Origin: Nanobdellota archaeon
Lineage (GTDB): Archaea > Nanobdellota > Nanobdellia > Woesearchaeales > JACPBV01
Direction of reading: 5' to 3'
Assembly (NCBI GenBank): GCA_018813685.1
Contig: JAHJAV010000018.1
Span: forward strand, 9,576 to 73,575
DNA length: 64,000 bases
Below are positions 1,820-44,665 of this stretch, one piece after another (within the stretch, counting starts at the first letter, position 1; the number at the start of each line of letters is the position of its first letter). A program made the translations under genes and the position numbers. Below the pieces are notes generated by a model. That model did no database searches, was not told where the DNA came from, and saw only the letters and a list, made by a program, of their open reading frames with translations.

Positions 1820-3226
1820 ATGGATGAAAACAAAGTAGAATCGATGGATTACCATTCTGGAAAGAAATATGAAAAAAATCCAGTAATGAATAAGCCCGGC
1901 AAAACAGCTGTTCTTGTTACAAAGGGCTGCGAAACACAGGGGGAATTAAGCTTAGCATACACCCCATTTGTTGGAAAAATTGTAGAAGATATACATAGAA
2001 ATCCAGAACAACTGCCTAAATTAACTTCTTACAGCAACAAAGGGGCTGTTATAAGCGATGGAACTGCTATTCTTGGCTTTGGTGATCTAGGGCCGAAAGC
2101 AGCAACACCAGTAATGGAAGGCAAATCAGTCTTGTTTAAGGTTTTTGGAGATGTTGACATGGATTCTATTGTCATAAATGAAAAAGATCCAAAGAAGATC
2201 ATAGAATTCGTAATGAAAATGGAACCTAACTACGCCGGCATAAACCTAGAAGATATCTCAGCCCCAAGATGTTTTGAAATAGAAGAAGAATTACAGAAAA
2301 GGTATAAAGGGTTTATCTTCCATGATGACCAGCATGGTACTGCCACAATTACATTAGGCGGATTGTTAAATGCCTTAGAGCTAGTTAACCTAAAAAAAGA
2401 AGATGCTAAAGTAGTTATTTGCGGCGCAGGAGCTGCTGCTATAGCCTCAGCAAAACTATACAAAAAAGACGGAATAAAAAAAATAATAATGCTTGACAGA
2501 AATGGGGCAATCTTTAAAGGAAGAAACTTTCCAACAAACAAATACAAAGAGCAATTTGCAATAGGCTTAGAAGAATATGGGCTAAATCCAGATAAAGATG
2601 GAAAGATAACCTTAAAAGAAGCTATAAAAGAAGCAAATGTTTTCTTAGGCTTATCAGCAGCTAACTTACTAACGGGAGAAATGGTAGAAAGCATGGCAAA
2701 AGATCCAATAATAATTGCAATGGCCAATCCAGTTCCTGAAATTCTTCCTGATGCTGCTTATGAGCATGGTGCTAAGATTGTAGCAACCGGGAGGAGTGAT
2801 TTTCCTAACCAAATAAATAATGTTTTGGGGTTTCCAGGCATCTTTCGCGGAGCCTTAGATGCTTTGATTTCTAAGACGACTGATGATATCAAGCTGGCGG
2901 CAGCTTATGCCTTAAAGGATCTGGCGCATAAGCCTGTTCCTGAAGAAGTTAAGGATAAATATCCTAAGGATAAGGCAAATGGTGTTTTTGAAGGAGAAGA
3001 CCCAGTAAAGCCAGAATACATTGTTCCTTTGGCATTGGATCCAAGAGTTGCTGTTGAGGTTGCTGCTGCTGTTTACAAGACAGCGTTTGAAAAAGGGATT
3101 GCAACAGCAAAACTTCCAGAAGGATTTAATTCTGCTGAAGAATATATTCCTGCTTACAAGAAGGAAGTTATGGAGAGAATAAAGGTGCAGGATAAGCTTA
3201 GGGAAGCTGTTAGAAATAGTTTTTAG
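1820..3226 (+). CDS. NAD(P)-dependent malic enzyme
   Basis: FHDDQHGTATITLGGLLNALELV and ICGAGAAAIA Rossmann motifs. SD-like aggggggat upstream. Confidence 0.85.
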   Translation: MDENKVESMDYHSGKKYEKNPVMNKPGKTAVLVTKGCETQGELSLAYTPFVGKIVEDIHRNPEQLPKLTSYSNKGAVISDGTAILGFGDLGPKAATPVMEGKSVLFKVFGDVDMDSIVINEKDPKKIIEFVMKMEPNYAGINLEDISAPRCFEIEEELQKRYKGFIFHDDQHGTATITLGGLLNALELVNLKKEDAKVVICGAGAAAIASAKLYKKDGIKKIIMLDRNGAIFKGRNFPTNKYKEQFAIGLEEYGLNPDKDGKITLKEAIKEANVFLGLSAANLLTGEMVESMAKDPIIIAMANPVPEILPDAAYEHGAKIVATGRSDFPNQINNVLGFPGIFRGALDALISKTTDDIKLAAAYALKDLAHKPVPEEVKDKYPKDKANGVFEGEDPVKPEYIVPLALDPRVAVEVAAAVYKTAFEKGIATAKLPEGFNSAEEYIPAYKKEVMERIKVQDKLREAVRNSF

Positions 3227-3424
3227 AATATGCATAGCATCTTCAAAATTCTTGACGGAAGCGGCAAAGGAGCTGCGTTCCCGTAGGGAGCACAGAAAAA
3301 GCCTTGCTTTTTCCTAGTTGCGCTCGGCTTTGCCTCGGCAAACCAACCCCTCGCGACGCTCGTCGATAATATTTGATTTATGGAATTTTGACCCTAGGAT
3401 GCTATGCACATACAGTTTTTAGAA
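3217..3424. repeat. GC-rich structured element A with 13-bp terminal inverted repeats and 11-bp flanking direct repeats
   Basis: DR agtttttagaa at 3217-3227 and 3414-3424; the first copy contains the malic enzyme stop codon. IR tatgcatagcatc (3228-3240) pairs with gatgctatgcaca (3398-3410). The GC-rich core has conserved hairpins shared with elements B and C. Confidence 0.55.
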
Positions 3425-3457: not shown

Positions 3458-4228
3458 ATGGAGTTTTGCGCATTAGCATCTGGTTCGTCTGGAAACTGCT
3501 TTTATGTAAAGGGGGGGAATTCTGCTGTGCTTATAGATGCTGGAATCTCTGCAAGGCAGATACTTGAGAGGTTATCTTCTATAAAACAATCTCCTAAATG
3601 GATAAAGGGGATTTTTGTAACACATGAGCATACAGACCACATAAGAGGCATAGATGTTTTTGCTTCAAAGCATAATATTCCAATCTATATGACTAAGGGC
3701 ACTGCAGAATCTTCCTGTGTATGCAGGGAGGATAATCTTGTGAATGTTATCAAGAATAATGAACATGTTAAGCTGAATGGGTTAAGTGTAGAGGCTTTTT
3801 CTAAATCACATGATGCTGCTGATCCTGTCTCTTATTCTGTTTCTGCCGGAGGTAAAAGAGTAGCTGTTGTTACAGACATAGGGTTTGCGTGCAAGAATGT
3901 CATTGACCATATATCATGCGCTCATTCTGTCATTTTAGAGTCTAACCATGATACTAAGATGTTAGAGGATGGGAATTATCCTATCTATCTAAAAAGAAGG
4001 ATTGCTTCTGACAAAGGGCATATCTCTAATTATAATGCTGCCTTATTATTATTGCAGCATGGGCCTAAGGGATTGAAGAATGCCATGCTTGCGCACCTTA
4101 GCGAGAACAATAATACTCCAGATATTGCGCTTAAGACTTTTGAGCTTTTAAAAGAGAGAAAAGACCTTAAGGTTAATATTAAACTTTCTTTGAGGGATAG
4201 TGTTTCTGAATGCATAAAACTAAAATGA
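3458..4228 (+). CDS. MBL-fold metallo-hydrolase
   Basis: HEHTDHIRG (HxHxDH) motif and N-terminal SGSSGNC. The start is probably M at 3458; the upstream ATG at 3404 lies inside the element A repeat. Confidence 0.65.
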   Translation: MEFCALASGSSGNCFYVKGGNSAVLIDAGISARQILERLSSIKQSPKWIKGIFVTHEHTDHIRGIDVFASKHNIPIYMTKGTAESSCVCREDNLVNVIKNNEHVKLNGLSVEAFSKSHDAADPVSYSVSAGGKRVAVVTDIGFACKNVIDHISCAHSVILESNHDTKMLEDGNYPIYLKRRIASDKGHISNYNAALLLLQHGPKGLKNAMLAHLSENNNTPDIALKTFELLKERKDLKVNIKLSLRDSVSECIKLK

Positions 4229-4446: not shown

Positions 4447-5871
4447 ATGGCTGAATGTATTCTTAAAGCAAATGATGGCAACGGAATGGGCCATCTAAGA
4501 AGGGCATTAAACTTACTATTAGCAGCTCCAGAATTAGCGCAGTCTGTTGAATTAATCGCCCATCAAGGTTTTCAAAAATTTCTTGAAGAGTTTGATAGAA
4601 AATTTAATACTAGCTTGGTTCCTGATTGCGGATGGAGATTAAACTTAGATACTAGTTTGCCTTATCTAAAATGGAATTCACCTTATGCAAGAGAATTTGA
4701 TCAAAAAGCTGCATTAGATATGTATTATCTTTCTTTTATTGATGCGTTGGGGAGAAATCCAAGAGCAAAGCTTGTCTATGTTGATGATCATAATGATCCT
4801 GCAGCTATGCTTACAGGTAGAGCAGGAAAGGCGCTAGGTTTAACAAGACACCCAATAAAAGAATTAGTTCCTGATGCTGCACTAGCTTTTCTAATGCAGA
4901 CACAAGGATATTTTGATGGCTGCAAGGATCAAATGCCAAAAACAAGAAAAGAATGTTTTGACATTGCAGATTATCTCCTTTTTCCCAGCCACCCAGAATT
5001 CATAGGGGCAGCTGCTGATTTTGACTTTTCAAATGGCAATCCAGAAAAGGTCATCTCATTGGGATTTCTTGTAGACCAAGAAGTTATGGGGCTGTTTAAA
5101 CAAACAGATAAAAGAAGAGTAAAGAATACGCTGTATGGGGCTCTTGAAGTAGATAAGGCTAACCGAAAATTGATCTATTGCTCTTTTGGCGCAGGTGAAG
5201 CAGCTGATTCCATATTACGTGCTATATTCACAGCAGCTCAAAACCAAGATTATGTTTTTGTAATTGCAGATCCAAGAGGTTTATTAGCTAAAAAAGCTCA
5301 AGAGATGTATGATGTTAAACTTGCTTTTACATGCAGCAGAGGAACTAGACTTCCAACAGCAGCAAGAAAAATTAGCTTAGGAAATGGAAGATATGTATAT
5401 ATAGTCAATCCAGGAACTTCTGAATTACATCTTAAATACCTTGCAGCTTCAGATGTATTATTGCAAAGCAATGGCTCAAATACAACCTATGAGGCAATTG
5501 CAGCTGGAAAACCAACAATTAATGTTCATTTGCCAAAACCAGGGTTTGAACAAGGGTTTAAAGCATTAGCTATGAGTGCAAATGGTTTGGGTGAGGTTTT
5601 GATGCTGCCTGGTGAAGCAGATATGGCTGATAGATTTAGAGAATTGGTCGGGCCACAACCTGAATTTAGATATGAACAATTAAGTGCTCAACATCTTGAG
5701 GCTGCAATTGGAAGAATTTTAGATACTCCTAATTTTTATGGTGATAATCTTGCTGCTGCACAAAGGTTTATTACCTCCCCACAAACAGCTTCTCAAATAT
5801 TAGCTAATATGATGTTAAGAAAAAATCCTCAAGAGATTGTTGATACCTTAGGCCTGCCGCGTTATGAATAA
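4447..5871 (+). CDS. PseG/SpsG-like GT-B fold protein (putative glycosyltransferase/nucleotide-sugar hydrolase) with an extra domain
   Basis: N-terminal GNGMGHLRRALNLL resembles the GxGHxMR motif of PseG/GT28-type enzymes. C-terminal TYEAIAAGKPTINVHLP resembles the GT-B acceptor motif. Ala-rich and longer than PseG. Confidence 0.35.
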   Translation: MAECILKANDGNGMGHLRRALNLLLAAPELAQSVELIAHQGFQKFLEEFDRKFNTSLVPDCGWRLNLDTSLPYLKWNSPYAREFDQKAALDMYYLSFIDALGRNPRAKLVYVDDHNDPAAMLTGRAGKALGLTRHPIKELVPDAALAFLMQTQGYFDGCKDQMPKTRKECFDIADYLLFPSHPEFIGAAADFDFSNGNPEKVISLGFLVDQEVMGLFKQTDKRRVKNTLYGALEVDKANRKLIYCSFGAGEAADSILRAIFTAAQNQDYVFVIADPRGLLAKKAQEMYDVKLAFTCSRGTRLPTAARKISLGNGRYVYIVNPGTSELHLKYLAASDVLLQSNGSNTTYEAIAAGKPTINVHLPKPGFEQGFKALAMSANGLGEVLMLPGEADMADRFRELVGPQPEFRYEQLSAQHLEAAIGRILDTPNFYGDNLAAAQRFITSPQTASQILANMMLRKNPQEIVDTLGLPRYE

Positions 5872-8848: not shown

Positions 8849-9970
8849 TTACAGTTTTTTAACTACAGCATCCCCCATTTCTGAAGTAGTGTTTTTACCG
8901 CCAAGGTCTTTTGTTCTTACTTTTCCTTCTTTCAGGACTGATTCTATGGCTTTTACTATAATTTCTGCTGATTTGGGTTGTCCGATCTCATCTAACATCA
9001 TTGCTCCTGCCCAGATTGTTGCTAATGGATCAGCTATATTCATGCCTTTGTATTTTGGAGCAGAGCCGTGGATAGGCTCAAACATTGAAATTCCTTCTGG
9101 ATTAATGTTTCCGCCTGGTGCTAAGCCTAAGCCGCCTTGTATCATTGCACCTAAGTCTGTTATAATGTCTCCGAACATGTTTGGTGTAATGACTACCTTA
9201 AACCATTCGGGGTTTTTTACAAACCACATTGTGATTGCATCTACAAACATGAATTCGTGCTTTATTTTTGGGTATTGTTTTGCTATTATTTCTACATTCT
9301 CTCTCCAGAATCCGTAGATATCTGAAAGGACATTTGCTTTGTCTACAAAGTAAGCTGTTTCAACTTTTTCTTTTTTAGCTAATTCAAAGCCGTATTTTAT
9401 TACGCGTTGAGCTCCTTGTTTGCTCATTACTCCAATCTGGTAAGCGATCTCATCTGTGTTTTCTATGTCTAGGTTGAATTTTACTTTGTAAAGATCCCTA
9501 ATTACTTCTAATTCCTGCTTGCTTTTTCCTATTTTTGCCCTGTTTCCTATTCCGACATAGAAATCTTCAGTGTTCTCCCTTATAACTGTGAAGTTTATGT
9601 CCTTTGGGCCTTTGCCTTTTAGAGGGCAGTCTACTCCTCCTAATAATTTGATTGGCCTTAAGTTAACGTACTGGTCAAAATAGAATCTTGTCTTTAGCAA
9701 TATTCCTTTTTCTAATATTCCCGGCTTGCATCTTGGATCGCCTAGAGCGCCTAAGTAGATTGCCTTGCAGGTTTGTTTTATCTCTTTTAGAGTTTCTTCT
9801 GTGATAAGTTCGCCTGTTTTTAGGTATTTGTCTGCTCCGTTGTTGTAAGTTACCCAATCTATCTTGAAGTTGTTCTTGTCTGCTACTGCTTCTATTACTT
9901 TAACTCCTTCTGCTATGATTTCTGGGCCTATGCCATCACCTGGCATTTTTGCGATTTTGTAGGTTTTCAT
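8849..9970 (-). CDS. leuB: 3-isopropylmalate dehydrogenase
   Basis: [15 protein letters not shown]-terminus; isocitrate/isopropylmalate dehydrogenase family. Confidence 0.85.
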
Positions 9971-15254: not shown

Positions 15255-16967
15255 TCAGCCCTCAAAATATTTTCCCGGGCCTGCCATACAGCCGCCAAAG
15301 GCATCTTTAAGATTACCCCCTGGCAAAAGCATTGGCAGTACATTTGATTCTTCTTCTATCTGAATATCTAGGATAGTAGTAGTGTCGTTCTTTATTGCCT
15401 GCTTTATAGCCGACTCTAGTTCTGATTTTTTTGCAACCCTGATTCCTTTCAAGCCATATGCGTCTGCTACTTTCAGGAAGTCTGGAGTTGTACCTAGGTA
15501 AACCTCTGAATAACGCTTATCTGAAAATAATTCAAGCCACTGTCTGACCATCCCCAAATAAGAGTTGTTCATTATCATTATTATTATCTTGATTCCTGCT
15601 TCTTTTATTGTCCCTAATTCCTGAATAGTCATCTGGAATGAGCCATCGCCATCTATTAGGAAAACGTTTACATCAGGCTTAGCAACTTTTGCGCCTATTG
15701 CTGCCGGAAGACCGAAACCCATTGTTCCTGCGCCGCCTGAACTGATGAATGTTCTTGGCTTTCTCATCCTTAAGAAATGGCCTGCGAACATCTGGTGCTG
15801 GCCAACTCCTGTAACAACTATGTCTTCTGGTTTCATCAGTTTGTTTAATTCGAGCATAACTGTTTTGGGATGGATTCTTTTGCCTTCTTTGATAGGAACG
15901 CATTCATCACAGTATTTTTTGTAATGCTTTATTGTTTTTGTCCATTCTGTTTTCTCTTTTGTCTGGAGTTTTTTTAGTTCTGCTGTTAATTGGGTTATGA
16001 TTTCTTTTGCATCTCCAACTATAGGGATATCTATCTTAACGTTCTTTCCTATTTCAGCAGGGTCTATATCTGCATGGATAACTTTAGCGTTCTCTACATA
16101 TGTTTTTAGATTTCCTGTAATCCTATCTGAGAACCTGCAGCCTATTGTGATCAGTAAGTCGGTCTTCAAAGTAGCGTAATTTGCTATTTTTCTTCCGTGC
16201 ATTCCAACTGTGCCTAAGCTTAATGGGTGAGTTTCATCAAATATTCCTTTTGCCATGAATGTTGTTGAAACTGGGATTTTTGTTAAGCTGACTAATTCAG
16301 CAAGCTCTTTTGAAGCTTCTGATATTACAACTCCCTGGCCTATCAGGAGAAGTGGCCTTTCTGATTTGGCTATTGCTTCTGCTGCTTTTTTTATCTGGAT
16401 AGGATTGGGCATTTTTGTTGGCTGAAATCCAGCTATGTTAACTTCAGTTGGGATAGGCTCTGTAACTTCGCCTGTCATTGTATCTTTTGGGAGGTCTATA
16501 TAAACAGGGCCTGGCCTTCCTTCTACTGCAATCTTAAATGATTTCATTATCATAGGGGCCATCTGATTAGGTGTTCTAACCTGATAATTGTGTTTTGTTA
16601 TAGGTAAGGTGATTCCCATCATGTCTGTTTCCTGGAATGCGTCGTTTCCAATCAATGATGTTGGAACCTGACCGCCAAATGCTATTATAGGAATAGAGTC
16701 CATATAAGCATCGGCTATTCCTGTAACTAAGTTACAAGCGCCTGGGCCCGATGTTGCTATACAAACAGCTGGTTTTCCTGAAGCTCTTGCATAGCCTTCT
16801 GCTGCATGGGCTGCTCCCTGCTCGTGCCTTACTAAGATATTTTTTATCTTTCCTTTATAGTCAAGGTAAGCGTCGAATAGAGGTATAACTGAACCGCCGG
16901 GAAATCCGAATGTTACATCTATTCCCTGCTTGATCAATGTTTCAATCAATATGTGTGCTCCGTTCAT
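15255..16967 (-). CDS. ilvB: acetolactate synthase large subunit
   Basis: TPP enzyme family; GGSVIPLFDA and GDGSFQM motifs. Confidence 0.9.
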   Translation of the reverse strand: MNGAHILIETLIKQGIDVTFGFPGGSVIPLFDAYLDYKGKIKNILVRHEQGAAHAAEGYARASGKPAVCIATSGPGACNLVTGIADAYMDSIPIIAFGGQVPTSLIGNDAFQETDMMGITLPITKHNYQVRTPNQMAPMIMKSFKIAVEGRPGPVYIDLPKDTMTGEVTEPIPTEVNIAGFQPTKMPNPIQIKKAAEAIAKSERPLLLIGQGVVISEASKELAELVSLTKIPVSTTFMAKGIFDETHPLSLGTVGMHGRKIANYATLKTDLLITIGCRFSDRITGNLKTYVENAKVIHADIDPAEIGKNVKIDIPIVGDAKEIITQLTAELKKLQTKEKTEWTKTIKHYKKYCDECVPIKEGKRIHPKTVMLELNKLMKPEDIVVTGVGQHQMFAGHFLRMRKPRTFISSGGAGTMGFGLPAAIGAKVAKPDVNVFLIDGDGSFQMTIQELGTIKEAGIKIIIMIMNNSYLGMVRQWLELFSDKRYSEVYLGTTPDFLKVADAYGLKGIRVAKKSELESAIKQAIKNDTTTILDIQIEEESNVLPMLLPGGNLKDAFGGCMAGPGKYFEG

Positions 16968-17003: not shown

Positions 17004-18578
17004 TTAGTATTGTGCATGAATCCTGTTTCCTTTTTTATTTCTTTGGAAATTCAATGCTTTGTTCATGCCTTTTATCAATGCTATTGCTGATGCCATCATG
17101 ATATCTTCATTAACTGCTTCTGCCTTGAATATATTTCCTTTTTTGTCCTGGATCTTTATTGATACGTCTGCCAATGCATCTGTGCCGCCAGTGATCGCTT
17201 TAAGACCGTATTCTTTTAATGTGATTGAAGGGTCTATCATTGTGCGTATGGCATGACTAACAGCATCAACAGGACCGACTCCTTTACCAGTCCCTGTTTT
17301 CTTTTTTCCGTCGATGATCAAAGTTACTGCTGCTTCTGGCTGCATCTTGTTTCCTGTTGACACTTTTATCTCATCAAGTTTTATTATCTCCTCATCTTTT
17401 GAAAGTTCTCCTGCAATGTCTGTAGCTATTGCTATGATATCTTCCCGCATGACAACCTTTTGTTTATCAGCAAGCTCTTTTACTTTGATTATTACTTTTT
17501 CAACCTGTTCTTTAGTAAGATCATAACCCATCTCTTTTAAGGCGTTTTCTACTGCATGCTTTCCAGAGTGTTTTCCAATAACAAATGTTGTTCCTATCCA
17601 CCCTATCTCTTCTGGCTTCATTATCTCATAGGTCAACTTGTTCATCAACATACCATGCTGGTGTATGCCTGCTTCGTGGGCAAATGCATTAGATCCTACA
17701 ATTGCCTTGTTTCTCTGAACTGCAATTCCTGTCAATGATGAAACTAATTGTGATGTTTTGAAAATCTCTTTTGTGTTTATTCCGGTTGTTATATCTTTGA
17801 AAAAGTCCTTTCTTGTCTTTAAGTTCATCACTACTTCTTCTAAGCTGCAATTGCCTGCTCTTTCGCCGATGCCGTTTATAGTGCACTCTACCTGAGTTGC
17901 ACCGTTATTTACTGCTTCTAATGAGTTTGCTACAGCCAGGCCTAAGTCATTGTGGCAATGTATGCTTATGACTACTTTGTTTGATTTTATTATGTTATTT
18001 AGCTTTTCGAAAACATATTTTATTCTCTTTCCGAATTCTTCTGGCTCTGCATAGCCTACTGTGTCTGGGATGTTGATTGTGGTTGCTCCTGCTTCGATCA
18101 CTGCTTTGATTATATCACACATGTAGTCTAGGTCTGTTCTTGCAGAGTCTTCTGGGCTGAATTCAATGTCTTTGCACAATGATCTTGCGTGTTTTACTGC
18201 GTCTACTGCCATCTGCATGACTTCTTCTTTTGATTTTCTTAGCTTGTTGTCCATATGCACTTGTGAAGTTGCAATAAAGGTGTGAATTCTAGGTTTTTTT
18301 GAATATTTTACAGCTTCCCATGCCCTGTCAATATCTTCCTTTCTTGTTCTGGCTAATCCGCAGATTATTGGGCCTTTTATTTCTTTAGCGATTAATTTAA
18401 CAGATTCAAAATCACCTTCTGAGCTTATAGGGAAACCTGCTTCAATTACGTCAACTCCTAATTTAGCTAGCTGTTTAGCTACTATAATCTTCTCCTGCAT
18501 TGTCAAGGATGCTCCCGGAGACTGCTCGCCATCCCTTAATGTTGTGTCGAAAATGATTATTTTCTTCATGATGTTCAC
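17004..18578 (-). CDS. leuA: 2-isopropylmalate synthase (or citramalate synthase)
   Basis: IFDTTLRDGEQSPGASL plus HCHNDLGLAVAN, with a C-terminal regulatory domain. Confidence 0.85.
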   Translation of the reverse strand: MNIMKKIIIFDTTLRDGEQSPGASLTMQEKIIVAKQLAKLGVDVIEAGFPISSEGDFESVKLIAKEIKGPIICGLARTRKEDIDRAWEAVKYSKKPRIHTFIATSQVHMDNKLRKSKEEVMQMAVDAVKHARSLCKDIEFSPEDSARTDLDYMCDIIKAVIEAGATTINIPDTVGYAEPEEFGKRIKYVFEKLNNIIKSNKVVISIHCHNDLGLAVANSLEAVNNGATQVECTINGIGERAGNCSLEEVVMNLKTRKDFFKDITTGINTKEIFKTSQLVSSLTGIAVQRNKAIVGSNAFAHEAGIHQHGMLMNKLTYEIMKPEEIGWIGTTFVIGKHSGKHAVENALKEMGYDLTKEQVEKVIIKVKELADKQKVVMREDIIAIATDIAGELSKDEEIIKLDEIKVSTGNKMQPEAAVTLIIDGKKKTGTGKGVGPVDAVSHAIRTMIDPSITLKEYGLKAITGGTDALADVSIKIQDKKGNIFKAEAVNEDIMMASAIALIKGMNKALNFQRNKKGNRIHAQY

Positions 18579-18840
18579 CTTTTGTGTTTAGTTTTATAAA
18601 TCTTTCCTCTGCTTATTTTTATAGCATTATAAAAAGTAAAATTTTATCCGCTGGCCCTTAATTCCTGTTTAAAGAACTAGGGCAATCATAACACCAGAAC
18701 CAATAGAAGTAGAACTAACAAGAATGTAAATGATTTGAACGAGTTAGTTCGTTTCATAATAAGTTAGAATATGGATTTTATATTTAAAGGTTTGTTTTTT
18801 GTTTAGAGTTATAGTAAAAAATCCAAAATTAGTTTATATG

Positions 18841-19013
18841 AAAAACCCAACCACAACATAGGCTTAATGATAGTTTATTTGAAAAAATCCAGCCATCCAT
18901 GACGGCCTACGGACAAAACTTCGTTTTGCCCTACTCGCCACCCCGTAGGGGGCATCCCCCGGCTCGTCTGCGTCATGGCTGGATTTTTTCTCGCCATGTT
19001 GTTGGGTTTTTTA
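18841..19013. repeat. GC-rich structured element B inside a long nested inverted repeat
   Basis: Outer IR aaaaacccaaccacaacat / atgttgttgggttttt; inner IR aaaaaatccagccat(ccat)gacgg / cgtcatggctggatttttt. Core has a caaaac-UUCG-gttttg tetraloop hairpin and a cccc-gta-gggg hairpin. Its 5' and 3' modules match the ends of element A. Confidence 0.55.
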
Positions 19014-19112
19014 AAAATAGAAATGTCGGAAAAGCTTTGCTTTTCTGAGCATTTTAGTTTTTGCTTTGCAAAAACCAAAAGGTTTAAATAGTACCTAACC
19101 TTATCTAGGGTT

Positions 19113-19772
19113 ATGTTAACAAAAAATGTACTTTTATATGAAGAACCGATAAAGAGAATACTCGGAAAAGTAGAGTTAGAAACCATATATAAAAAAATTG
19201 AGGGAAAACAATTGAAACAGGTTGAGATGAACTATCTTTCAAGATCTATCCGCCCTAAATTGATTGCTGCAAGAATGATCTCACAAGAAAATATACTTGA
19301 AAGAATCAACAAAAGAACAAGAAGAGAACAATCTTTAATAGAATTTAACCTATCTAATTATGGATATGAGATGATTTCTATAAAACGCAAAAAGCATAAA
19401 AAGTTACCTATTGAAGAACTGATAGTTGAAATAATCATTAAGTATCCTTCGGCACGTTTTATAGAGGCTATACCTTTTTTGATTATAAAAAATAAAATTG
19501 GGGGATTTAAACTTCTTGAATTAGCCACCAGGTACGGAATCAAGAATAAGGTAGGATATTTAATTGAAACTGTATTTATGATAAGGCCAATTCCACAATT
19601 AAAGGGATTGCTAGATTATTTAATAAAGAATAAAGAAAATGAAATGTCCTTTCTTGTTGAGGGAGATGAGGAATTCCTTAGGAAAACTTCCCCTGAGAGG
19701 GTTAGGAAATGGAATCTGCTTGGAAGATTTTTTGATGAGGACTTTAAAAAACTTGCAAAGGTGTACCTATGA
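19113..19772 (+). CDS. hypothetical protein, upstream partner of a nucleotidyltransferase
   Basis: 219-aa ORF overlapping the next gene by 4 bp (ATGA). Confidence 0.4.
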   Translation: MLTKNVLLYEEPIKRILGKVELETIYKKIEGKQLKQVEMNYLSRSIRPKLIAARMISQENILERINKRTRREQSLIEFNLSNYGYEMISIKRKKHKKLPIEELIVEIIIKYPSARFIEAIPFLIIKNKIGGFKLLELATRYGIKNKVGYLIETVFMIRPIPQLKGLLDYLIKNKENEMSFLVEGDEEFLRKTSPERVRKWNLLGRFFDEDFKKLAKVYL

Positions 19773-20266
19773 TAACCAAAGATGACCTTATAGCCTGGCT
19801 TAAATGTGTGGATAAAAAGCTTAAAAGAAAAATGACAATTATAGCAGTGGGGGGCACTGCAATGACTTTGATAGGGCTAAAATCTTCTACAAGGGATGTT
19901 GATTTTTGTCTCCACTCAGATGACAAAAACGAATTCAAGAAGGCAATTGATAACAAGTTTATAGTAGATTTATTTGTAGACGGCTATATTTTTTCAGAGC
20001 AATTACCCCCTGATTATCTAGAAAAATCTACCAAACTAATCGAGATGGAGCATATTGAATTAAGGGCATTGGACAAGGCAGATATAATAATAACCAAGGC
20101 AGCCAGGCTAAATGCTCGGGATGAAGAAGATATCAAGGCCCTAGCCAAATATGTAAACAAAGAAGAGCTTATCAAAAGATTTAATGATGTATTAGAAACA
20201 TATGCTGGAAACGAAGAAGATTTTAAATATCATTTTTCATTAATTGTCAAGCGGTTTTTTAATTAA
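19769..20266 (+). CDS. minimal nucleotidyltransferase (Pol-beta superfamily)
   Basis: VGGTAMTLIGLKSSTRDVDF matches the hG[GS]x9-13Dh[DE]h nucleotidyltransferase motif. Confidence 0.5.
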   Translation: MITKDDLIAWLKCVDKKLKRKMTIIAVGGTAMTLIGLKSSTRDVDFCLHSDDKNEFKKAIDNKFIVDLFVDGYIFSEQLPPDYLEKSTKLIEMEHIELRALDKADIIITKAARLNARDEEDIKALAKYVNKEELIKRFNDVLETYAGNEEDFKYHFSLIVKRFFN

Positions 20267-20979: not shown

Positions 20980-21333
20980 TTATTTTTCTTCCTGTTCCAG
21001 TTCTGATACGATTTTCTTCAGCTTTGGCTTTAAGCTAGGGATTTCGGTTTTCATAGCTGACCAGACAAGGTTGTAGTCTATGCCAAAGTATGCATGAATC
21101 AATCTGTCCCTCATTCCAGCCATTGATTTCCATTGTATTTCTTTGTAATTATCCTTTATTTTAGAGGGTATATGCTTTGCGGCTTCTCCGATTATCTCAA
21201 ATTTTCTGATAACTGCACTGGATGTCTTTTCATCTGCTTTGAGCTCTTCAAGAGCCATACTGCCTACAAACTCTTCAATTGATTCCATGGCAGCGATAAT
21301 ATCCTTAATGAAAAGGTTATAATCTCTTTTCAT
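20980..21333 (-). CDS. hepT: HEPN-domain toxin HepT (DUF86)
   Basis: RDRLIHAYFGIDYNLVW contains the Rx4HxY HEPN motif. Confidence 0.75.
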   Translation of the reverse strand: MKRDYNLFIKDIIAAMESIEEFVGSMALEELKADEKTSSAVIRKFEIIGEAAKHIPSKIKDNYKEIQWKSMAGMRDRLIHAYFGIDYNLVWSAMKTEIPSLKPKLKKIVSELEQEEK

Positions 21334-21632
21334 ACCTTAACCACCTCTTTAAGGATATTATTTTTCAATTCAGGCCTTATGCCCCCTTCAGAAACAACAT
21401 CTACCTTAATCTTCAGCTTTTCTTCAAGATAATTTCCAAGCCCGACAAAATCAAATAGAGTTGCTTTTGGATTGAATTTTACGAGAATGTCCACATCGCT
21501 TGACTTTTTCTGCTGCCCCCTTGCATAAGAGCCGAATATGCCAAGTTCCCTGACTTTATACTTTTTTTTCAGTTCGCCTTTGCTTGAAGCAAGAAGCGCC
21601 TGGATCTGCTTTAATCTTTTCATTTTATCCAT
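21330..21632 (-). CDS. mntA: minimal nucleotidyltransferase antitoxin MntA
   Basis: GIFGSYARGQQKKSSDVDILV (GSx9-13DxD). 4-bp overlap with hepT. Confidence 0.8.
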   Translation of the reverse strand: MDKMKRLKQIQALLASSKGELKKKYKVRELGIFGSYARGQQKKSSDVDILVKFNPKATLFDFVGLGNYLEEKLKIKVDVVSEGGIRPELKNNILKEVVKV

Positions 21633-31112: not shown

Positions 31113-31158
31113 TATATTAAAACTATGTTTTTAATCTGTTTTGGATTTAAAAATCCAA

Positions 31159-31170
31159 AAGTATTTAAAA
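31159..31170 (+). promoter_or_regulatory. TATA-box-like element for rps17e
   Basis: gtatttaaaagg about 25 bp upstream of the rps17e ATG. Confidence 0.35.
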
Positions 31171-31191
31171 GGAATCAAAATCCAAAAGAGT

Positions 31192-31383
31192 ATGGGAAGA
31201 ATAAAACTACAGCTCATAAAGAGAACAACCAAGAGAATTGTAAGGGAGCACGGCTCTGAAATAAAGGAAGATTTTAACGAGAACAAGAAAATAGTAGAGA
31301 AATATACTGATGTTTCTAATAAGAAGCTAAGAAATGCGATTTCTGGTTATATTACTAAGCTAGCAAAAATAAAGGAAGAGTAA
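31192..31383 (+). CDS. rps17e: 30S ribosomal protein S17e
   Basis: MGRIKLQLIKRTTKRIV...KKLRNAISGYITKL. Start at the internal ATG of the longer ORF. Confidence 0.8.
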   Translation: MGRIKLQLIKRTTKRIVREHGSEIKEDFNENKKIVEKYTDVSNKKLRNAISGYITKLAKIKEE

Positions 31384-31529
31384 AGGTTATTCGGCTAAGG
31401 GCCCAACAGAAAAAACTCCTGTTTTTTCCTATCTCCGCTCGGCTAACGCCTCTGGAGATGCCCGATAGACTCCTGCTTCCAGTTTGTGCTGTTTTGAGAA
31501 ACAGCACGAACGATAAAGGAAGAGTAAAG
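31369..31529. repeat. GC-rich structured element C (127 bp) flanked by a perfect 17-bp direct repeat duplicating the rps17e 3' end
   Basis: DR ataaaggaagagtaaag at 31369-31385 (contains the rps17e stop TAA) and at 31513-31529. The core shares about 50 nt with element A, with compensatory changes in two hairpins, and carries an extra 9-bp stem gtgctgttt/aaacagcac. Confidence 0.6.
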
Positions 31530-31561
31530 TTTATAAGGATTTTAGAATTCTATTGTTTTAT

Positions 31562-31633
31562 GGTGGCCATAGTTTAGTGGTAGAATACAGGACTGTGGAT
31601 CCTGTGGCCCGAGTTCGATTCTCGGTGGCTACC
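31562..31633 (+). tRNA. tRNA-His (anticodon GUG) with encoded G-1
   Basis: G-1 then acceptor gtggcca/tggctac; anticodon stem cagga/tcctg with loop ctGTGga; T-arm ccgag-ttcgatt-ctcgg; discriminator C. Confidence 0.8.
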
Positions 31634-31637
31634 CTTT

Positions 31638-33677: not shown

Positions 33678-34005
33678 TAGGCAGGGCTGGAATAAGCCAC
33701 CTTTTGTCAGATGATTTCCATCTGTCTTAGCATTTAACTAAGCGTTTTAAAAACTTGCACCGGTCAGGTCTCGCCGTTTCATCCATTCCTCTTAGAGCGT
33801 CTGTCGGTTAACTCAGTTACGTTGCCGTAACCTTCTCGACTTTCATCCTCCTAAAAGGGGGTCTCGTTTCTGTGCGGTTGCCGCACATTGCTGCACCTTC
33901 TTTATGAAGTGACCATAATAGCCAGAGGCTATTGGTGGGTGGACTTTCCTCAGTTCGTACTTACATTGCTGTAAGGAACCGTTAGCTAAGTACCTTCCCT
34001 GCCTA
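33678..34005 (-). ncRNA. rnpB: RNase P RNA
   Basis: Minus strand has GAGGAAAGUCCACC (CR-I / P4 5' strand, plus 33941-33951) and ACAAAAGGUGGCUUA (CR-V / P4 3' strand, plus 33691-33704); they pair with the conserved bulged U. P1 terminal helix aggcaggg/ccctgcct. GC-rich island about 328 nt. Confidence 0.7.
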
Positions 34006-36675: not shown

Positions 36676-39600
36676 TTATACATCATCTATAAGATCCTGC
36701 GCTGTTTTGTCTTCTATTTTCTGTTCTTGTTCTGTTTTGTCTTCAATCTGCTTTTCTTCTTTGGCTTCTATTTTCTGTTCTTGTTCTGTTTTGTCTTCAA
36801 TCTGCTTTTCTTCTTTGTATTCTATTTCCTGCTCTTTTTCTGAATTGTCTTCTATCTCTTTCTCTGGCTCTGAATTGTCTTCAATCTCTTTTGGCTCTTC
36901 ATAGGAGATTTCATTAGCTGGTCCTGATTCTTCTTTAGTAGCCTCTTTTCCATTAACTTCCTTTGGCTCTTCTCCTAAGATTTTTGCTGCTGCAACTACT
37001 TTATCCCCTGATTCAAGCTTCATCAATGTCATGCCCTGTGTTGCTCTGCCTATTATTGAAATTCCTTTTGCAGGAGTCCTTATGGTAATTCCGTTCTTGC
37101 TTATGAACATGACTTCGTCTTCTTCGGTTATTGACTTAACTGAAACTACATTACCGTTTCTTTCTGAGCAGATTATGTTCTTGACACCTACCCCCCCTCT
37201 GCGAGTAAGCCTATATTCAGAAACCGATGTTCTTTTTCCAAAGCCGTTTTCAGTTATGGTCAATAATGCCCTTGTATCATCTGCAACTACCATGCCTATA
37301 ACATAATCATTATCTCTTAATGTAGCCCCTCTTACGCCTTTTGCAGACCTCCCTGTTGACCTTACATCTGTTTCTTTGAATCTTACTGCTGAGCCGTTTT
37401 TTGTAGCTATGATTATCTCTTTTGTACAATCTGTCTTTACAACTCTTATCAATTCATCATTATCTTCAAGAGTGATTGCAATAATGCCTCCTTTTCTAGG
37501 GTTAGAGTATGCTGAAAGCTCTGTCTTTTTTACTGTTCCATTTTTAGTGGCCATTATCAAAAATTCATTTTCTTTAAATTCTGATATTGGAGTAAATGCA
37601 GAGATTTTTTCATCCTGGCTTAACTGAAGTAAGTTAACTACTGATTTTCCTAAAGCCTGTCTTGAGCCTTCTGGTATGTTATAAACTTTTAACCAATGAA
37701 CACGTCCCTTATTTGTAAAGAACAATATGTAAGAATGGGTGTCTGCAATAAAGATGTCTTCTACAAAGTCCTGCTCTTTTGTTCCGGCAGCAATTATTCC
37801 TTTTCCGCCTCTTCTCTGCTGCTTATAGGTGCTTAATGGCTGTCTTTTTACATAGCCTGAATGAGTTATTGTGATGACTGTTTTTTCTCTTTTGATCAAA
37901 TCTTCCATCTCAAATGAATTTAATTCACCACCTGTAATCTCTGTCCTTCTTTCATCTCCGTATTGTTCTTTTAATTCAATGAGCTCTTTTTTGATTATGT
38001 CAAGGATCTTTTTTTCAGAAGCCAATATTGAGGTAAGCTCACCTATTAATTTTATTAAGTCAGAATGCTCTGTCTTTATCTTTTCCTGCTCAAGTGCTGC
38101 AAGCCTCTGCAGTTTCATATCCAAGATAGCCAATGACTGCTTTTCTGTTATGCTTAAGCTTGTCTGTAATACCTGCCTTGCCTGCTCAACAGATCTGCTT
38201 TCTTTGATAAGTTTTATAGTTGTATCTATGTCTTTAAGTGCAATCAATAATCCCTCTAATATATGTGCCCTGTCTTTTGCTTTGTTTAGGTCAAATTCTG
38301 TTCTTTTTCTTACAACTTCTTTCCTATGCTCGACAAAAAAATAGATAAGCTGTTTTATGCCTAATGTCTTTGGCTCATTGTTGACTAAGGCAACTGCCAT
38401 TATTCCAAATGTTTCCTGTAATCTTGTATGTTTGTATAATTGATTTATGACTATGTTTGAGTTTGAGTCTTTTTTTAATTCTATAACAATGCTCATTCCC
38501 GTTCTATCTGATTCATCCCTTATATCACTTATACCCCTTATCTTATCATCATTTACTAATCCCGCTATCTGTTTGATAAGTTCTGATTTATTTACCATGT
38601 AAGGGATCTCTGTGATTATGATGCGGTTTTTTTCTGGCTCAATCTCTGCTCTGCCCCTTACAATTACCTTTCCTCTGCCTGTTTTGTAAGCATGAACTAT
38701 TCCTTCTCTTCCGCAGATTATTCCGCCTGTTGGGAAGTCAGGACCTTTTACATGGTTCATTATTTCATCGACTTCTAAATCAGGATTTTCTATCAAAGCA
38801 ATTGTTCCATTGACCACTTCAGTCATGTTATGGGGCGGTATGTTTGTTGCCATGCCGACTGCGATGCCTGAAGAGCCGTTTATCAGAAGATTAGGAACTT
38901 TTGAAGGAAGAACAACTGGCTCTTCTAATGAGCCATCGAAGTTTGGCATAAATTGAACTGTGTTTTTGTCTATGTCCTGCAAAAGTTCTTCTGAGAGTTT
39001 TTTTAGACGAGCTTCTGTATATCGCATAGCTGCTGGACTATCGCCATCTACCGAGTTATGAACAAAGATTCCGGCAGCTAAAGCAAAATTGTGTGTGCCC
39101 TTGATTGTCAAATCATAAACATCTTCTAATTTTGGAAGAAGTTCTATTCTTAGAATTTTATGGTTGTAGGCTTTTGCTTGTTCAACCATGTCTGAGAAAT
39201 TATCAAAGTATTGTAATGCTGTGTTTATTTTTGGAAAGCAATTATTGGTTCTTTCTTTTCCATAGATTTCAGGTGTTATTTCTTCATATTTGTGAGTGAT
39301 TGAATTGACAAAACACAATATCTTGCTTTTCATTACTTTTTCTTTGTAAGAAGGATCCTGCCATTTTTTCTTCAGGGAAACGGCTGCTTTTTCTGCCAGT
39401 TCATTCATTAAGTTGGAGTTTTCTTTTAGTCTCTGCTTATTATTTTCTTTTATTGCTTTAATGATTTTTTCACGGAATTCAAGATCTTGCCATTGTGAAA
39501 CCGCTTTTTTGCTGTGAGCTTCTTTTATTGATGGATCTTCCCATAACTTTTTTGCCATCTTACTGAAATGGTTTTTAGGGAATTTGGACCTATATCCACT

Positions 39601-40968
39601 ATCTTTCCAGAGTTTTTTTGAATTTTCACTTCTCTCTTTCTTGTATTTTTTGTTTTCCCACCTTTCTTTTGATTTCTTGGAGATAAGGCCTCTGCGCCCT
39701 GGTCTTGCCCAGATTTCTTTAGATTCTTCTGAAGTGAATTTCCTTAATGAAGGATCATTTTTCTCCCATCTTTTTTTCATTTCTGCTGATTTTAGTTTGC
39801 TCATCTTTTGATGATATTCTTTATTACCCCATAGCTCTTTCAATCTCCTGCTTTTTTCTTCTCTTAATTCTGGATGTTTTTTTGAGAATTCAATATTGAT
39901 TTCACTCAATCTTTTACTCGTATGTTCCCTATAATCCTTATTCTTCCAATTCTTTTTGTTTCTTTCAGAAAGTTTTTTAGAAGCTCTTTCTTTGTTATCT
40001 TTATTAGACCAGAATCTTTTTCTTCCTTCTGCTATTTTTCTGCGATATTCTGGATCTTTGTGTAATTCTGAAGCATGTCCTGCATGCAATGACCAATGAT
40101 CTTTCCATTTTATTCTTTTTATGTTGTCTGGGTTGTTGTTTAATTTGTTAAAATCTATATGGTGTCTTATTCTTCCTGCATTCTTTGCATATATTTCATT
40201 TTTAATATTCCAATTATCTGCTAGTTCATGTATTGGTGCCCATTTGTTTGTGTTTGATTGATGGAGCATTGGATAACCAACAAGTGCTGGCTTTATGTTA
40301 TCTTTTTTAGTAGATGGCCTAATGTTAAGGGGCATCAAGGAATCTTCTGGTTTTAGGTATTGTGCTTGTTTATACTCGCCATTTCTTAGCATGAACCTAT
40401 GGTCTAAAGTGCACTTTATTCCTTCATTATTGTCTAAAACAACCTTTAGGATTTTTTGGCTTTTCTTTGTGAGTCTAGGGTTTTTTATTTCAGCTATTTC
40501 TATGCTTCCCTCTTTATTAATAGTGTAAGTATAGTTCTTTTTGCCTTTTTTATGCTCTTTTATTAACTCTTCAAAGCTTAGGTTTCTACCATCTGTTAAG
40601 GCTATTTTAGTATCTTTTGTGAAACAACCAAAATTACCCTGACCATCAATTAGAGTATATCTTAAAGAGAATGGCTGGACCATCCTAGCTAATGAATCAT
40701 AAACAGCAACATCGCCGTGAGGGTGATATTTTCCTAAAACTTCTCCTACAATCCTGGCGCTTTTTTTGAATGGCTTGTTATGATACATACCCATATCATT
40801 CATTGCGAAAAGAATCCTTCTGTGAACTGGCTTTAAGCCGTCTCTTACATCTGGCAAGGCTCTTCCAACTATGACAGACATAGCATAATCTACATAAGAC
40901 TGCTTCATCTCTTCTTCTATCTCTCTGGGCAGTATCTGCTCTCCTTTTGATTCGATTTTTTCAGTCAT
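36676..40968 (-). CDS. gyrA: DNA gyrase subunit A interrupted by a 524-aa intein, with an acidic EK-repeat C-terminal tail
   Basis: N-terminal GyrA motifs up to QGNFG. The extein resumes with SVDGDSPAAMRYTEARL and the GyrA beta-pinwheel follows. Confidence 0.9.
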   Translation of the reverse strand: MTEKIESKGEQILPREIEEEMKQSYVDYAMSVIVGRALPDVRDGLKPVHRRILFAMNDMGMYHNKPFKKSARIVGEVLGKYHPHGDVAVYDSLARMVQPFSLRYTLIDGQGNFGCFTKDTKIALTDGRNLSFEELIKEHKKGKKNYTYTINKEGSIEIAEIKNPRLTKKSQKILKVVLDNNEGIKCTLDHRFMLRNGEYKQAQYLKPEDSLMPLNIRPSTKKDNIKPALVGYPMLHQSNTNKWAPIHELADNWNIKNEIYAKNAGRIRHHIDFNKLNNNPDNIKRIKWKDHWSLHAGHASELHKDPEYRRKIAEGRKRFWSNKDNKERASKKLSERNKKNWKNKDYREHTSKRLSEINIEFSKKHPELREEKSRRLKELWGNKEYHQKMSKLKSAEMKKRWEKNDPSLRKFTSEESKEIWARPGRRGLISKKSKERWENKKYKKERSENSKKLWKDSGYRSKFPKNHFSKMAKKLWEDPSIKEAHSKKAVSQWQDLEFREKIIKAIKENNKQRLKENSNLMNELAEKAAVSLKKKWQDPSYKEKVMKSKILCFVNSITHKYEEITPEIYGKERTNNCFPKINTALQYFDNFSDMVEQAKAYNHKILRIELLPKLEDVYDLTIKGTHNFALAAGIFVHNSVDGDSPAAMRYTEARLKKLSEELLQDIDKNTVQFMPNFDGSLEEPVVLPSKVPNLLINGSSGIAVGMATNIPPHNMTEVVNGTIALIENPDLEVDEIMNHVKGPDFPTGGIICGREGIVHAYKTGRGKVIVRGRAEIEPEKNRIIITEIPYMVNKSELIKQIAGLVNDDKIRGISDIRDESDRTGMSIVIELKKDSNSNIVINQLYKHTRLQETFGIMAVALVNNEPKTLGIKQLIYFFVEHRKEVVRKRTEFDLNKAKDRAHILEGLLIALKDIDTTIKLIKESRSVEQARQVLQTSLSITEKQSLAILDMKLQRLAALEQEKIKTEHSDLIKLIGELTSILASEKKILDIIKKELIELKEQYGDERRTEITGGELNSFEMEDLIKREKTVITITHSGYVKRQPLSTYKQQRRGGKGIIAAGTKEQDFVEDIFIADTHSYILFFTNKGRVHWLKVYNIPEGSRQALGKSVVNLLQLSQDEKISAFTPISEFKENEFLIMATKNGTVKKTELSAYSNPRKGGIIAITLEDNDELIRVVKTDCTKEIIIATKNGSAVRFKETDVRSTGRSAKGVRGATLRDNDYVIGMVVADDTRALLTITENGFGKRTSVSEYRLTRRGGVGVKNIICSERNGNVVSVKSITEEDEVMFISKNGITIRTPAKGISIIGRATQGMTLMKLESGDKVVAAAKILGEEPKEVNGKEATKEESGPANEISYEEPKEIEDNSEPEKEIEDNSEKEQEIEYKEEKQIEDKTEQEQKIEAKEEKQIEDKTEQEQKIEDKTAQDLIDDV
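36712..36830. repeat. tandem ~57-bp nucleotide repeat (x2) encoding the EK-rich GyrA tail
   Basis: ctattttctgttcttgttctgttttgtcttcaatctgcttttcttctttg occurs twice in tandem. Confidence 0.6.
39055..40626 (-). mobile_element. intein in gyrA with HNH homing endonuclease and NUMOD3-like Lys-rich repeats
   Basis: Starts with Cys after GNFG and ends VHN before Ser (CAT AAC TCG at 39060-39052). Internal RIRHHIDFNKLNNNPDNIKRIKWKDHWSLH is an HNH-like motif. There are about 8 tandem copies of a ~22-aa K/S/W repeat. Confidence 0.8.
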
Positions 40969-44477: not shown

Positions 44478-44619
44478 GTTAATGCTAAAGAATAGTGGAA
44501 AATATAAAAAGGTTTCTATTGAAAGAGAAAGACAAAAGTAAATTATGATTTGTTTGTCTGTCAAAAACCTTAGGGTTTTTGAGCATGCTCAGAAACCTTT
44601 GATTTCTGACATTTCTATA

Positions 44620-44665
44620 TCTAGTGGCAGTAATTTATTATAACTTAATTTAGTCTGCCACTAGA
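44620..44665. promoter_or_regulatory. 11-bp inverted repeat in the divergent promoter region upstream of endA
   Basis: tctagtggcag ... ctgccactaga with a 24-nt AT-rich loop. Adjacent perfect palindrome gagcatgctc (44581-44590). Confidence 0.3.

Follow-up and report, generated by a model that had tools for sequence, protein, structure and literature searches.

In this study, we analysed a stretch of 64,000 nucleotides from a Nanobdellota archaeon (hereafter the window), in which we focus on three short, GC-rich and structured intergenic islands: element A (3229-3413), element B (18881-18990) and element C (31391-31512). Comparison of these sequences with one another and with related DNA suggests that A, B and C are probably low-copy, lineage-restricted, non-autonomous insertion elements of the miniature inverted-repeat transposable element (MITE) or REPIN (doublets of repetitive extragenic palindromes, REPs) kind, which would depend on hairpins and fall into two or three families. 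In our best reading, they occur only in a narrow group of Woesearchaeota-type (DPANN) archaea and are new for this lineage. Sequence families, covarying hairpins, empty sites in related genomes, flanking repeats around A and C, and nesting were all observed, and it is from these that we infer non-autonomous mobile elements of the MITE/REPIN kind.

Two families of structured GC-rich sequences

An earlier note on this DNA had pointed to three GC-rich islands, and these are real: a GC scan of the window, whose overall GC content is 36%, singles out 3244-3375, 18889-19007 and 31415-31491. The other GC-rich stretches are tRNA-Leu, tRNA-His and the RNase P RNA; apart from these tRNAs and the RNase P RNA, A, B and C are the sole strongly GC-rich intergenic islands of the window. 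Their regions fold better than shuffled controls, with z scores of -2.8 to -6.5 depending on region and strand (-4 to -4.8 for A, with folding energies of -68 to -73 kcal/mol; -5.9 to -6.5 for B; -3.8 for C). The sequences were compared using nhmmer, covariance models, blastn, ARAGORN, Rfam 15 scans and alignment-shuffle tests; the covariation analyses draw on few sequences and on alignments that are partly structure-guided, and the support that they give is qualitative.

A and C share a core of about 60 nt, hereafter the C-type core, in which an A-run/T-run hairpin (H1) is followed by CCUAG and by a second hairpin (H2) around GCUCGGCU..GCCUC. It lies on the forward strand in both elements, at 3290-3347 nested in A (nhmmer E 1.5e-14; covariance model 69 bits, E 6e-13) and at 31403-31466 in C (nhmmer E 1.2e-14; covariance model 62 bits, E 2.4e-11). 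The similarity that the note had seen between them holds: within the window, blastn aligns 39 nt at 82% identity (E 2e-4), and the local alignment score of 26 compares with 9.1 ± 1.4 for shuffled sequences, none of 500 scoring as high. In A, H1 pairs 3295-3302 with 3306-3313, and H2 pairs 3318-3321 with 3338-3341 around GCTCGGCTTTGCCTCG, with an inner stem at 3326-3328/3332-3334; GCAC precedes the core and CCAAC ends it. The corresponding pairings in C are 31409-31416/31421-31428 for H1 and 31431-31436/31454-31459 for H2.

Further copies of this core exist in the same genome and in a second archaeon of the same metagenome; the note had taken a lack of such copies as a sign against its claim. 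The pattern TTTTTCCTANNTNCGCTCGGCT was scanned against 185,579 species-representative genomes, Joint Genome Institute (JGI) metagenomes and viral contigs. It had no match in the species-representative genomes and matched five JGI metagenome contigs. One of these, L006, is the A locus itself; L002 and L003, two contigs of the same sample, belong to another archaeon, where the core lies downstream of a TspO gene. The remaining two (L004 and L005) were discarded as chance matches in high-GC DNA, leaving three genuine contigs, all from one sample. An additional copy, E, was found about 1.4 kb past the window end, on the window's own contig (L046 13929-13997, minus strand). With nhmmer, five loci reach E-values of 1e-14 to 1e-19 and copy E 1.7e-6; the covariance model scores five loci at 62-88 bits and has no other match in 225 kb of related archaeal DNA; likewise, about 286 kb of such DNA yielded no additional copies. 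Altogether, two genomes carry the core at four unrelated loci. CAAC or CAC precedes each of these four independent copies, and the cores of A and E end in CAAC.

Both hairpins keep their pairing through compensatory changes, as had been claimed from A and C. In H1, GAAAAAGC/GCTTTTTC in A corresponds to GAAAAAAC/GTTTTTTC in C, and position 7 is G-C in A, A-U in C and G.U in L002. In H2, TTGC/GCAA in A corresponds to ATCTCC/GGAGAT in C, and the further copies add compensatory changes: the outer stem reads GUUGC/GCAAC in A, E and L002/L003 and (A)UCUCC/GGAGA(U) in C, so that three of five pairs are double-changed, and the inner stem is GGC/GCC but AGA/UCU in E, which makes two double changes. The model-fitted alignment has 83.5% paired cells, a value reached by 2 of 500 shuffles, and three double-changed pairs, a count that understates the compensatory swap, since this alignment shifts the H2 of copy C by one column. 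The 5′ arm of H1 is missing from L003, and L002 gets this arm from a 145-nt block absent in L003.

Element B belongs to a second family. It is delimited by a terminal palindrome (18881-18896/18975-18990), that is, a perfect 16-nt terminal inverted repeat, around a core (18901-18974) predicted to fold as a three-way junction. Homologues were found at L002 1710-1826 and L037 15864-15977 (identical at L051 7732-7844), with nhmmer E-values of 1e-26 to 1e-30, which brings the B-type family to three independent loci in three genomes. Its members are about 110 nt long; the three copies share the termini GAAAAAAYC...GRTTTTTTC, a closing stem of about 16-22 bp and the three-way junction. One arm of the junction is a GGGGG-NNN-CCCCC hairpin within CGAACC/GGTTCG, and the other is a stem whose sequence is wholly different in each copy (CAAAAC/GTTTTG, CATTTTTGC/GCAAAAATG and CATTTCAC/GTGAAATG); GTAG motifs recur within the core. 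Across the three copies, in an alignment guided by structure, 91% of the 45 pairs are canonical and 19 show double changes. We tried to assign a strand from G.U versus A.C mismatches and gave this up, as they show no clear strand bias; B has no assigned strand.

The link between A and B is far weaker. The note had described 5′ and 3′ modules common to both, but their local alignment scores 11 against 9.2 ± 1.6 for shuffles, 86 of 500 being as good, and a hidden Markov model (HMM) of the three B-type copies misses A whether its core is kept or removed. Only the global alignment of A minus its core with B is marginal (10.5 versus 5.3 ± 1.8; 10 of 1000 shuffles). Given the missing HMM match and this marginal alignment, A was not accepted as a B-type member, and its membership is left as possible. 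The further idea that A is B with a C-type core inserted survives in part. GGGAGCAC precedes the core of A, whose final CCAAC is followed by CCCC; this is the loop position of the B-type GGGGG-CAT/CAA-CCCCC hairpin, but homology of the surrounding frame is weak. The idea is also too simple because C aligns with a part of B as well, namely an H1-like hairpin and the CCCTA after it (score 15, one of 500 shuffles as good).

These comparisons also bear on whether the islands merely look alike as GC-rich, low-complexity sequence, which we consider almost wholly implausible. The similarity of A and B alone is within the range of shuffles, and H1-type A-run/T-run hairpins are low in complexity and common in these spacers. 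Against this stand the A-C alignment score given above, family E-values of 1e-14 to 1e-30 and flanking repeats that are unique in the window. For the A-C core and the B-type family, chance is refuted; it is possible only for the A-B link. With sequence families that have covarying hairpins and a nested, modular build, the islands are not random GC drift, as the note had argued.

The elements match no known RNA family. In agreement with the note, which had recognised no tRNA, RNase P, signal recognition particle (SRP) or C/D-box pattern, no Rfam family comes near threshold: in E-value scans, the best matches for A, B and C score 14-23 bits against thresholds of 35-440, and scans of the window, L002, L003 and L007 at gathering thresholds returned only RNase P, tRNA and SRP RNA, all elsewhere. 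ARAGORN reported nothing at the element sites. By eye, we found no C/D boxes, H/ACA pocket with ACA, K-turn, hammerhead core or T-arm, and no bulge-helix-bulge motif in the long stems. Only short open reading frames (ORFs) cross the elements and none is shared between copies; the exception in length, a 103-aa ORF over B (18875-19186, minus strand), was judged spurious.

The hairpin covariation is correct, yet it cannot on its own separate an RNA function from a hairpin required for propagation. The elements might be genuine small RNA (sRNA) genes, forming a lineage-specific family of structured sRNAs with their own TATA-like promoter and oligo-T terminator, a possibility that we rate as unlikely but credible. 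Their copies would arise by duplication or insertion, and their hairpins would serve protein binding or antisense pairing, including with the 3′ end of the PRC-barrel mRNA discussed below. Such genes would explain covariation in H1, H2 and all B-type helices, G.U pairs in some copies (H1 of L002; GGGGG/UCCCU in L037), TATA-like AT boxes about 25-30 nt before the GC-rich cores with T-runs after them, and the complementarity of the core in A, over 17 of 18 nt, to a stretch just past the PRC-barrel stop codon. They fit poorly, however, with orthologous spacers of relatives that have no element, with the missing 5′ arm of H1 in L003, with the lack of a G.U versus A.C strand preference in the B-type family, and with B-type copies inside the leuD-leuB operon junction and between divergent promoters; moreover, at 64% AT, TATA-like boxes and T-runs are to be met with often in this DNA. 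The note had proposed a functional RNA or structured-DNA family: structured DNA is the better half of this proposal, and a conserved functional RNA gene family is not supported, because orthologous spacers are empty, the elements are low-copy in few lineages, and A and C are bracketed by duplicated target.

Insertion signatures and duplicated gene ends

Presence and absence at orthologous sites were found for A and for a B-type copy. A occupies the spacer between the genes of malic enzyme (1820-3226, plus strand) and of a metallo-β-lactamase (MBL)-fold hydrolase (3458-4228, plus strand), between the malic-enzyme stop codon and the MBL-hydrolase promoter. This spacer is 231 nt long in the window versus 37 nt in the syntenic L007, where the malic enzyme is 74% identical and the gene order is the same; once A and one copy of its flanking repeat are removed, the window's spacer is about as short as that of L007. 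At the leuD-leuB junction, L037/L051 carry a B-type copy together with a second repeat type, versus a 4-nt spacer in the window. The region upstream of leuA is conserved in L035, L037 and L038, and B is not there. Similarly, C is not at the rpS17e junction of L035, which has unrelated AT-rich hairpins at the same point. A itself is identical in L049, a strain whose adjoining MBL protein is 99% identical.

A and C are both flanked by direct repeats. The 185-nt composite insertion A (plus strand) lies between two perfect 11-nt copies of AGTTTTTAGAA, at 3218-3228, which includes the malic-enzyme stop codon, and at 3414-3424; these are its only two occurrences in 64 kb, where 0.27 are expected. 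Its 5′ terminal inverted repeat (3228-3251, plus strand) pairs with a 3′ arm (3383-3411) in a long closing stem, recovered by an inverted-repeat search (I2, 14 nt, 93%; I4, 9 nt, 100%) and also in the minimum free energy structures. The 122-nt insertion C (plus strand) lies between the stop codon of rpS17e (31141-31383, plus strand) and the promoter of tRNA-His (31563, plus strand). Its left repeat, ATAAAGGAAGAGTAAAGGTTAT (31369-31390), holds the last rpS17e codons and the stop codon and matches the right repeat (31513-31534), which extends into the TATA-like box of tRNA-His, at 21 of 22 positions; this 22-nt repeat has no further match in the window even at 2 mismatches, with 0 expected. C also contains an extra 3′ hairpin, GTTTGTGCTGTTT/AAACAGCACGAAC (31482-31511, plus strand), a 13-nt inverted repeat at 92% that is present in the fold.

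Nesting is seen twice. The core in A is enclosed in a larger unit with its own inverted-repeat ends (3228-3241/3398-3411), and B sits within a second palindrome (18841-18866/18991-19012), which was found by inverted-repeat search and in the fold and, like B, has no assigned strand. In this outer palindrome, AAAAACCCAACC on the 5′ side pairs with GTTGGGTTTTT (19001-19012); its arms resemble the terminal stem of the B-type copy of L037, and we take them as the remnant of a second B-type stem. We also considered that A had inserted into the loop of an older gene-end hairpin and rejected this, as the empty site, once reconstructed, has a weak fold (-9.6 kcal/mol, z -1).

The elements behave as inserted DNA: they lie in AT-rich spacers by gene ends or promoters, duplicated target sequence brackets A and C, and nesting into one another or into palindromes produces what the note called a modular build. 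If they are mobile, the hairpins would be kept because propagation requires them, either for a trans-acting enzyme or in an intermediate of single-stranded DNA or RNA. That the elements sit at gene ends would reflect tolerance of insertion, and the T-runs that close the hairpins would act as incidental bidirectional archaeal terminators.

A number of observations weigh against mobility of this kind, beginning with copy E. It overlaps a highly conserved coding sequence, that of a PRC-barrel gene: the 3′ half of its H2 corresponds to the last codons of the gene, whose C-terminus (...GDFLVVAEEDII) is 85-100% identical across the lineage. We discarded the idea that the insertion of E had made a new PRC-barrel C-terminus, since this C-terminus is conserved in all homologues. 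The stop codon is followed by GCGCAACTAAG and the H1 hairpin, then by a displaced second gene end; the gene-end repeat spans 32 nt at 78% identity (L046 13928-14015), with half a C-type core between its copies. In the last nine codons, all seven differences between the copies are synonymous or in the stop codon, which indicates that both diverged under coding constraint. As read from these sequences, the locus points to DNA recombined in from a related lineage, and not to simple target duplication or transposition.

Further points on the same side concern ends, repeats and copy number. C has no terminal inverted repeat in the inverted-repeat search, there is no recognisable target duplication at the three B-type copies, and no further copy of the outer part of A turned up in the DNA searched. 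The flanking repeats measure 11 nt at A versus 22 nt (21 of 22 matching) at C. A single transposase would give one fixed duplication length, and with these variable lengths no single known transposition mechanism fits. Copy number is low, at three cores and one B-type element plus a remnant per about 82 kb of this genome. The TATA-like boxes and T-runs mentioned above give the elements the look of small archaeal RNA genes. Finally, no transposase, integrase or reverse transcriptase was found in the window or in the flanking loci.

Part of this evidence would be explained if the elements were by-products of recombination or repair, arising by one-sided homologous integration, microhomology-mediated integration or template switching and not moving by themselves, which we regard as distinctly unlikely. 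Pieces from related genomes, carrying gene 3′ ends and terminator hairpins, would then leave variable-length duplications and local inverted repeats; in the case of copy E, the donor lineage would have TGAGCGCAACTAAG as natural 3′ flank, followed by the hairpin. Repeat lengths do vary (11, 22, 32 and 64 nt), the repeats hold gene 3′ ends with their stop codons (malic enzyme, rpS17e, PRC-barrel and TspO), and the seven differences at the PRC-barrel gene end are all synonymous or in the stop codon. Duplicated gene ends and gene-end hairpins recur in this lineage: L052, L053 and L037 have non-homologous hairpins in which the final codons of a gene pair with an inverted copy lying downstream, and in L035 different hairpins are inserted exactly at the rpS17e/TATA junction used by C. 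L052 and L053 have no core at the PRC-barrel end; in each, the final codons of this gene form such a hairpin with an inverted copy of its own, and L053 has a second PRC-barrel gene end as well. Nevertheless, a core of about 60 nt at four unrelated loci in two genomes, and B-type sequences at three loci in three genomes, call for a common source sequence that was copied repeatedly. In addition, the compensatory changes show that the hairpins were under selection once copied, and the B-type termini are conserved like the inverted repeats of an element.

We also considered an undescribed way in which structured modules might spread in DPANN archaea, and hold it to be quite improbable. Hairpin-targeted or homology-assisted insertion would bring a replacement gene 3′ end along with the module and displace the original end. 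The GC-rich two-hairpin module could be copied in this way even out of a related genome; the PRC-barrel locus, with its purely synonymous differences, has such a pattern. In a variant of this reading, the modules would be mobile small-RNA genes, and copies in opposite orientation could base-pair with one another as well as with the ends of the mRNAs that carry them.

In L003, a 64-nt direct repeat of the TspO gene end (190-253/1820-1883, 87.5%) brackets the core together with an ORF of 452 aa. We examined this ORF as a candidate mobility protein and did not retain it: it has no Pfam, NCBIfam or PHROG match, and a hydrophobic segment that is possibly membrane-spanning.

Genomic settings and neighbouring features

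Three of the four independent core loci (A, C and L002/L003) lie directly after a stop codon in sense orientation. B-type copies are placed between divergent promoters in the window, where B separates leuA (17004-18578, minus strand) from an uncharacterised gene (19113-19772, plus strand), and in L002, and at the leuD-leuB operon junction in L037/L051. These positions raise the question of whether the elements are cis-acting signals, at 3′ ends or between genes, that were selected where they stand, for instance bidirectional terminators, mRNA 3′ stabilisers or insulators, and would not be mobile. Oligo-T is the archaeal termination signal, and all arms of the hairpins have a T5-T6 run at their end on either strand; the sense orientation of cores past stop codons and the similar AAAAAGC-YTY-GCTTTTT hairpins by B and in L038 also agree with such signals. 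We nonetheless find this origin very improbable, as no transcript ends between the divergent promoters of the window and L002 where B-type copies lie, the conserved GC-rich parts far exceed the needs of a terminator, and relatives lack elements after the same genes.

No TnpA, TnpB or RAYT (REP-associated tyrosine transposase) gene was found in the window or in the neighbouring DNA examined, blastn gave no match for A among phages or for B among plasmids, and pattern scans of viral contigs for the core and for the B-type family were negative. Three viral contigs that matched the A/B motif of the earlier note were set aside as chance matches in high-GC coding DNA.

The window is part of a 142,974-bp metagenomic contig and is archaeal: it contains an archaeal-type RNase P RNA (33684-33999, minus strand, 124 bits), tRNA-His and tRNA-Leu, and encodes archaeal-type proteins such as S17e and S13. 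Its LeuA and MBL-hydrolase are identical or 99% identical to NCBI proteins labelled 'Nanoarchaeota / Candidatus Woesearchaeota archaeon'. L007 (CAZHRT010000001.1) is labelled 'uncultured Methanosarcinales archaeon', yet is syntenic with the window over more than 10 kb, and this label may be a binning or classification error; L007 also carries an archaeal SRP RNA at 4654-4926. A further assembly of the window's organism (L001/L045, Logan contig SRR2544004_110062) stops exactly 32 nt into A, a break that could be due to a repeat or to the element being polymorphic (present or absent) within that sample.

A third family of repeats (D-type) was noticed during this work. It consists of a variable A-run/T-run hairpin, TTGAGCATGCTCAGAAA, a variable insert and TTTCTGACA, and is represented at 44560-44620 of the window, just upstream of a tRNA-splicing endonuclease gene (44708-45283). 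Other copies are located at L007 17927-17968, in L037 at about 9880-9960 and at 15785-15840, and at about 7897 in L051; one of the two L037 copies adjoins the B-type copy. This family has no match among the viral contigs.

The surroundings of B contain other structured sequences. Just past B, at 19025-19080, there are two more A-run/T-run hairpins, GGAAAAGCTTTGCTTTTC and GTTTTTGCTTTGCAAAAAC. They are similar to the H1 hairpin of the core and to one that precedes leuA in L038, and may be of a generic, terminator-like type in this lineage. The window, L035, L037 and L038 also have in common a conserved block of about 55 nt upstream of leuA (TTCTNGTGTTATGATTGCCCTAATTCTT..AAGAATTAAGGGCCAGCGTATA; about 18644-18699, minus strand, leuA sense). 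It contains a 12-bp hairpin in which the only changes, on the leuA-sense strand, are U-A to U-G and A-U to G-U, and this block may be a putative leuA leader or regulatory element. On the other side, a DUF6036 nucleotidyltransferase gene (19769-20266) lies near a toxin-antitoxin pair composed of a HepT-like RNase and an MNT nucleotidyltransferase (20980-21632, minus strand).

In L035, at about 255-315 on the minus strand, we recognised by eye a tRNA-His gene that ARAGORN did not call and that appears to have an extra intron-like stretch after the anticodon region; the tRNA-His of the window (31563-31634) is without this stretch. Elsewhere in the window, an ORF of 1430 aa (36676-40968, minus strand) encodes a GyrA with an intein (Intein_splicing domain, residues 123-638).

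Comparison with known elements and significance

Among known systems, MITEs, of which the Sulfolobus SM elements are an archaeal example, share several traits with A, B and C. These are likewise small, non-coding and hairpin-forming, as well as intergenic, polymorphic between relatives and nested; at 185, 110 and 122 nt, respectively, they are within the size expected of MITEs (below about 500 bp, non-coding). A and the B-type elements have terminal inverted repeats (14 nt at 93% in A, whose ends have no second copy), and A and C are flanked by duplicated target. Unlike for MITEs, we found no partner insertion sequence with matching ends in the window or in neighbouring loci. The duplications, at 11 and 22 nt, are not of fixed length and are missing at B-type copies, C has no terminal inverted repeat, and copies are few. 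Moreover, what is conserved here is an internal GC-rich structured core and not the termini alone.

REPs are imperfect palindromes of 20-40 nt with a conserved GTAG head, present in tens to hundreds of copies, mostly in Proteobacteria; in a REPIN, two inverted REPs form a single long hairpin, and the associated RAYT is an IS200-like Y1 transposase. A, B and C resemble REPs and REPINs as extragenic GC-rich hairpins, often by gene ends, with compensatory pairing, and the terminal hairpin of the B-type family is REPIN-like, with recurrent GTAG motifs in the B-type core. They differ by the 70-nt non-palindromic centre of the B-type family, with its three-way junction, and by a core made of two separate hairpins. 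Palindromic elements derived from IS200/IS605 have subterminal hairpins, neither inverted termini nor duplications, and insert 3′ of a fixed tetra- or pentanucleotide. The CAAC or CAC ahead of all four independent cores could be such a site, and A and C have flanking duplications as whole units.

The GC clusters of yeast mitochondria offer another parallel, with GC-rich palindromic modules in AT-rich spacers that are strain-polymorphic, near gene ends and nested, and for which no enzyme of their own is known. This is an analogy only: the clusters belong to another domain of life, are unrelated in sequence and very numerous, and their repeats are very short. Pneumococcal BOX, ERIC/IRU (enterobacterial repetitive intergenic consensus/intergenic repeat unit) and Rickettsia palindromic elements also combine modular sub-elements, stable predicted structures and variable presence at orthologous sites, but they have no sequence relation to A, B and C and are high-copy, those of Rickettsia often being in frame within genes. 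With the Hgc RNAs recovered by screens of GC content, the elements share the aspect of GC-rich structured islands in AT-rich spacers; unlike these and other archaeal RNAs of Rfam, they match no Rfam model and are not kept at syntenic positions. When compared with what is expected of non-coding RNA genes, they have pairs kept by covariation (qualitatively, from few sequences) and no syntenic retention.

DPANN archaea have small, streamlined genomes. To our knowledge, no small interspersed repeat or MITE-like family has been described in them, and a full-text literature search for such a family in DPANN archaea found none. Whichever interpretation is preferred, GC content and covariation alone are insufficient to annotate these elements as conserved RNA genes. 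If they are transcribed, they would form a new lineage-specific family of structured RNAs. If they are mobile, they may break metagenome assemblies, one contig indeed stopping 32 nt into A, and they can remodel gene ends and promoters, as at the stop codons, tRNA promoter and operon junction where they are found. As mobile elements, they would also mark recent insertion of DNA, and possibly exchange between the genomes of related episymbionts.

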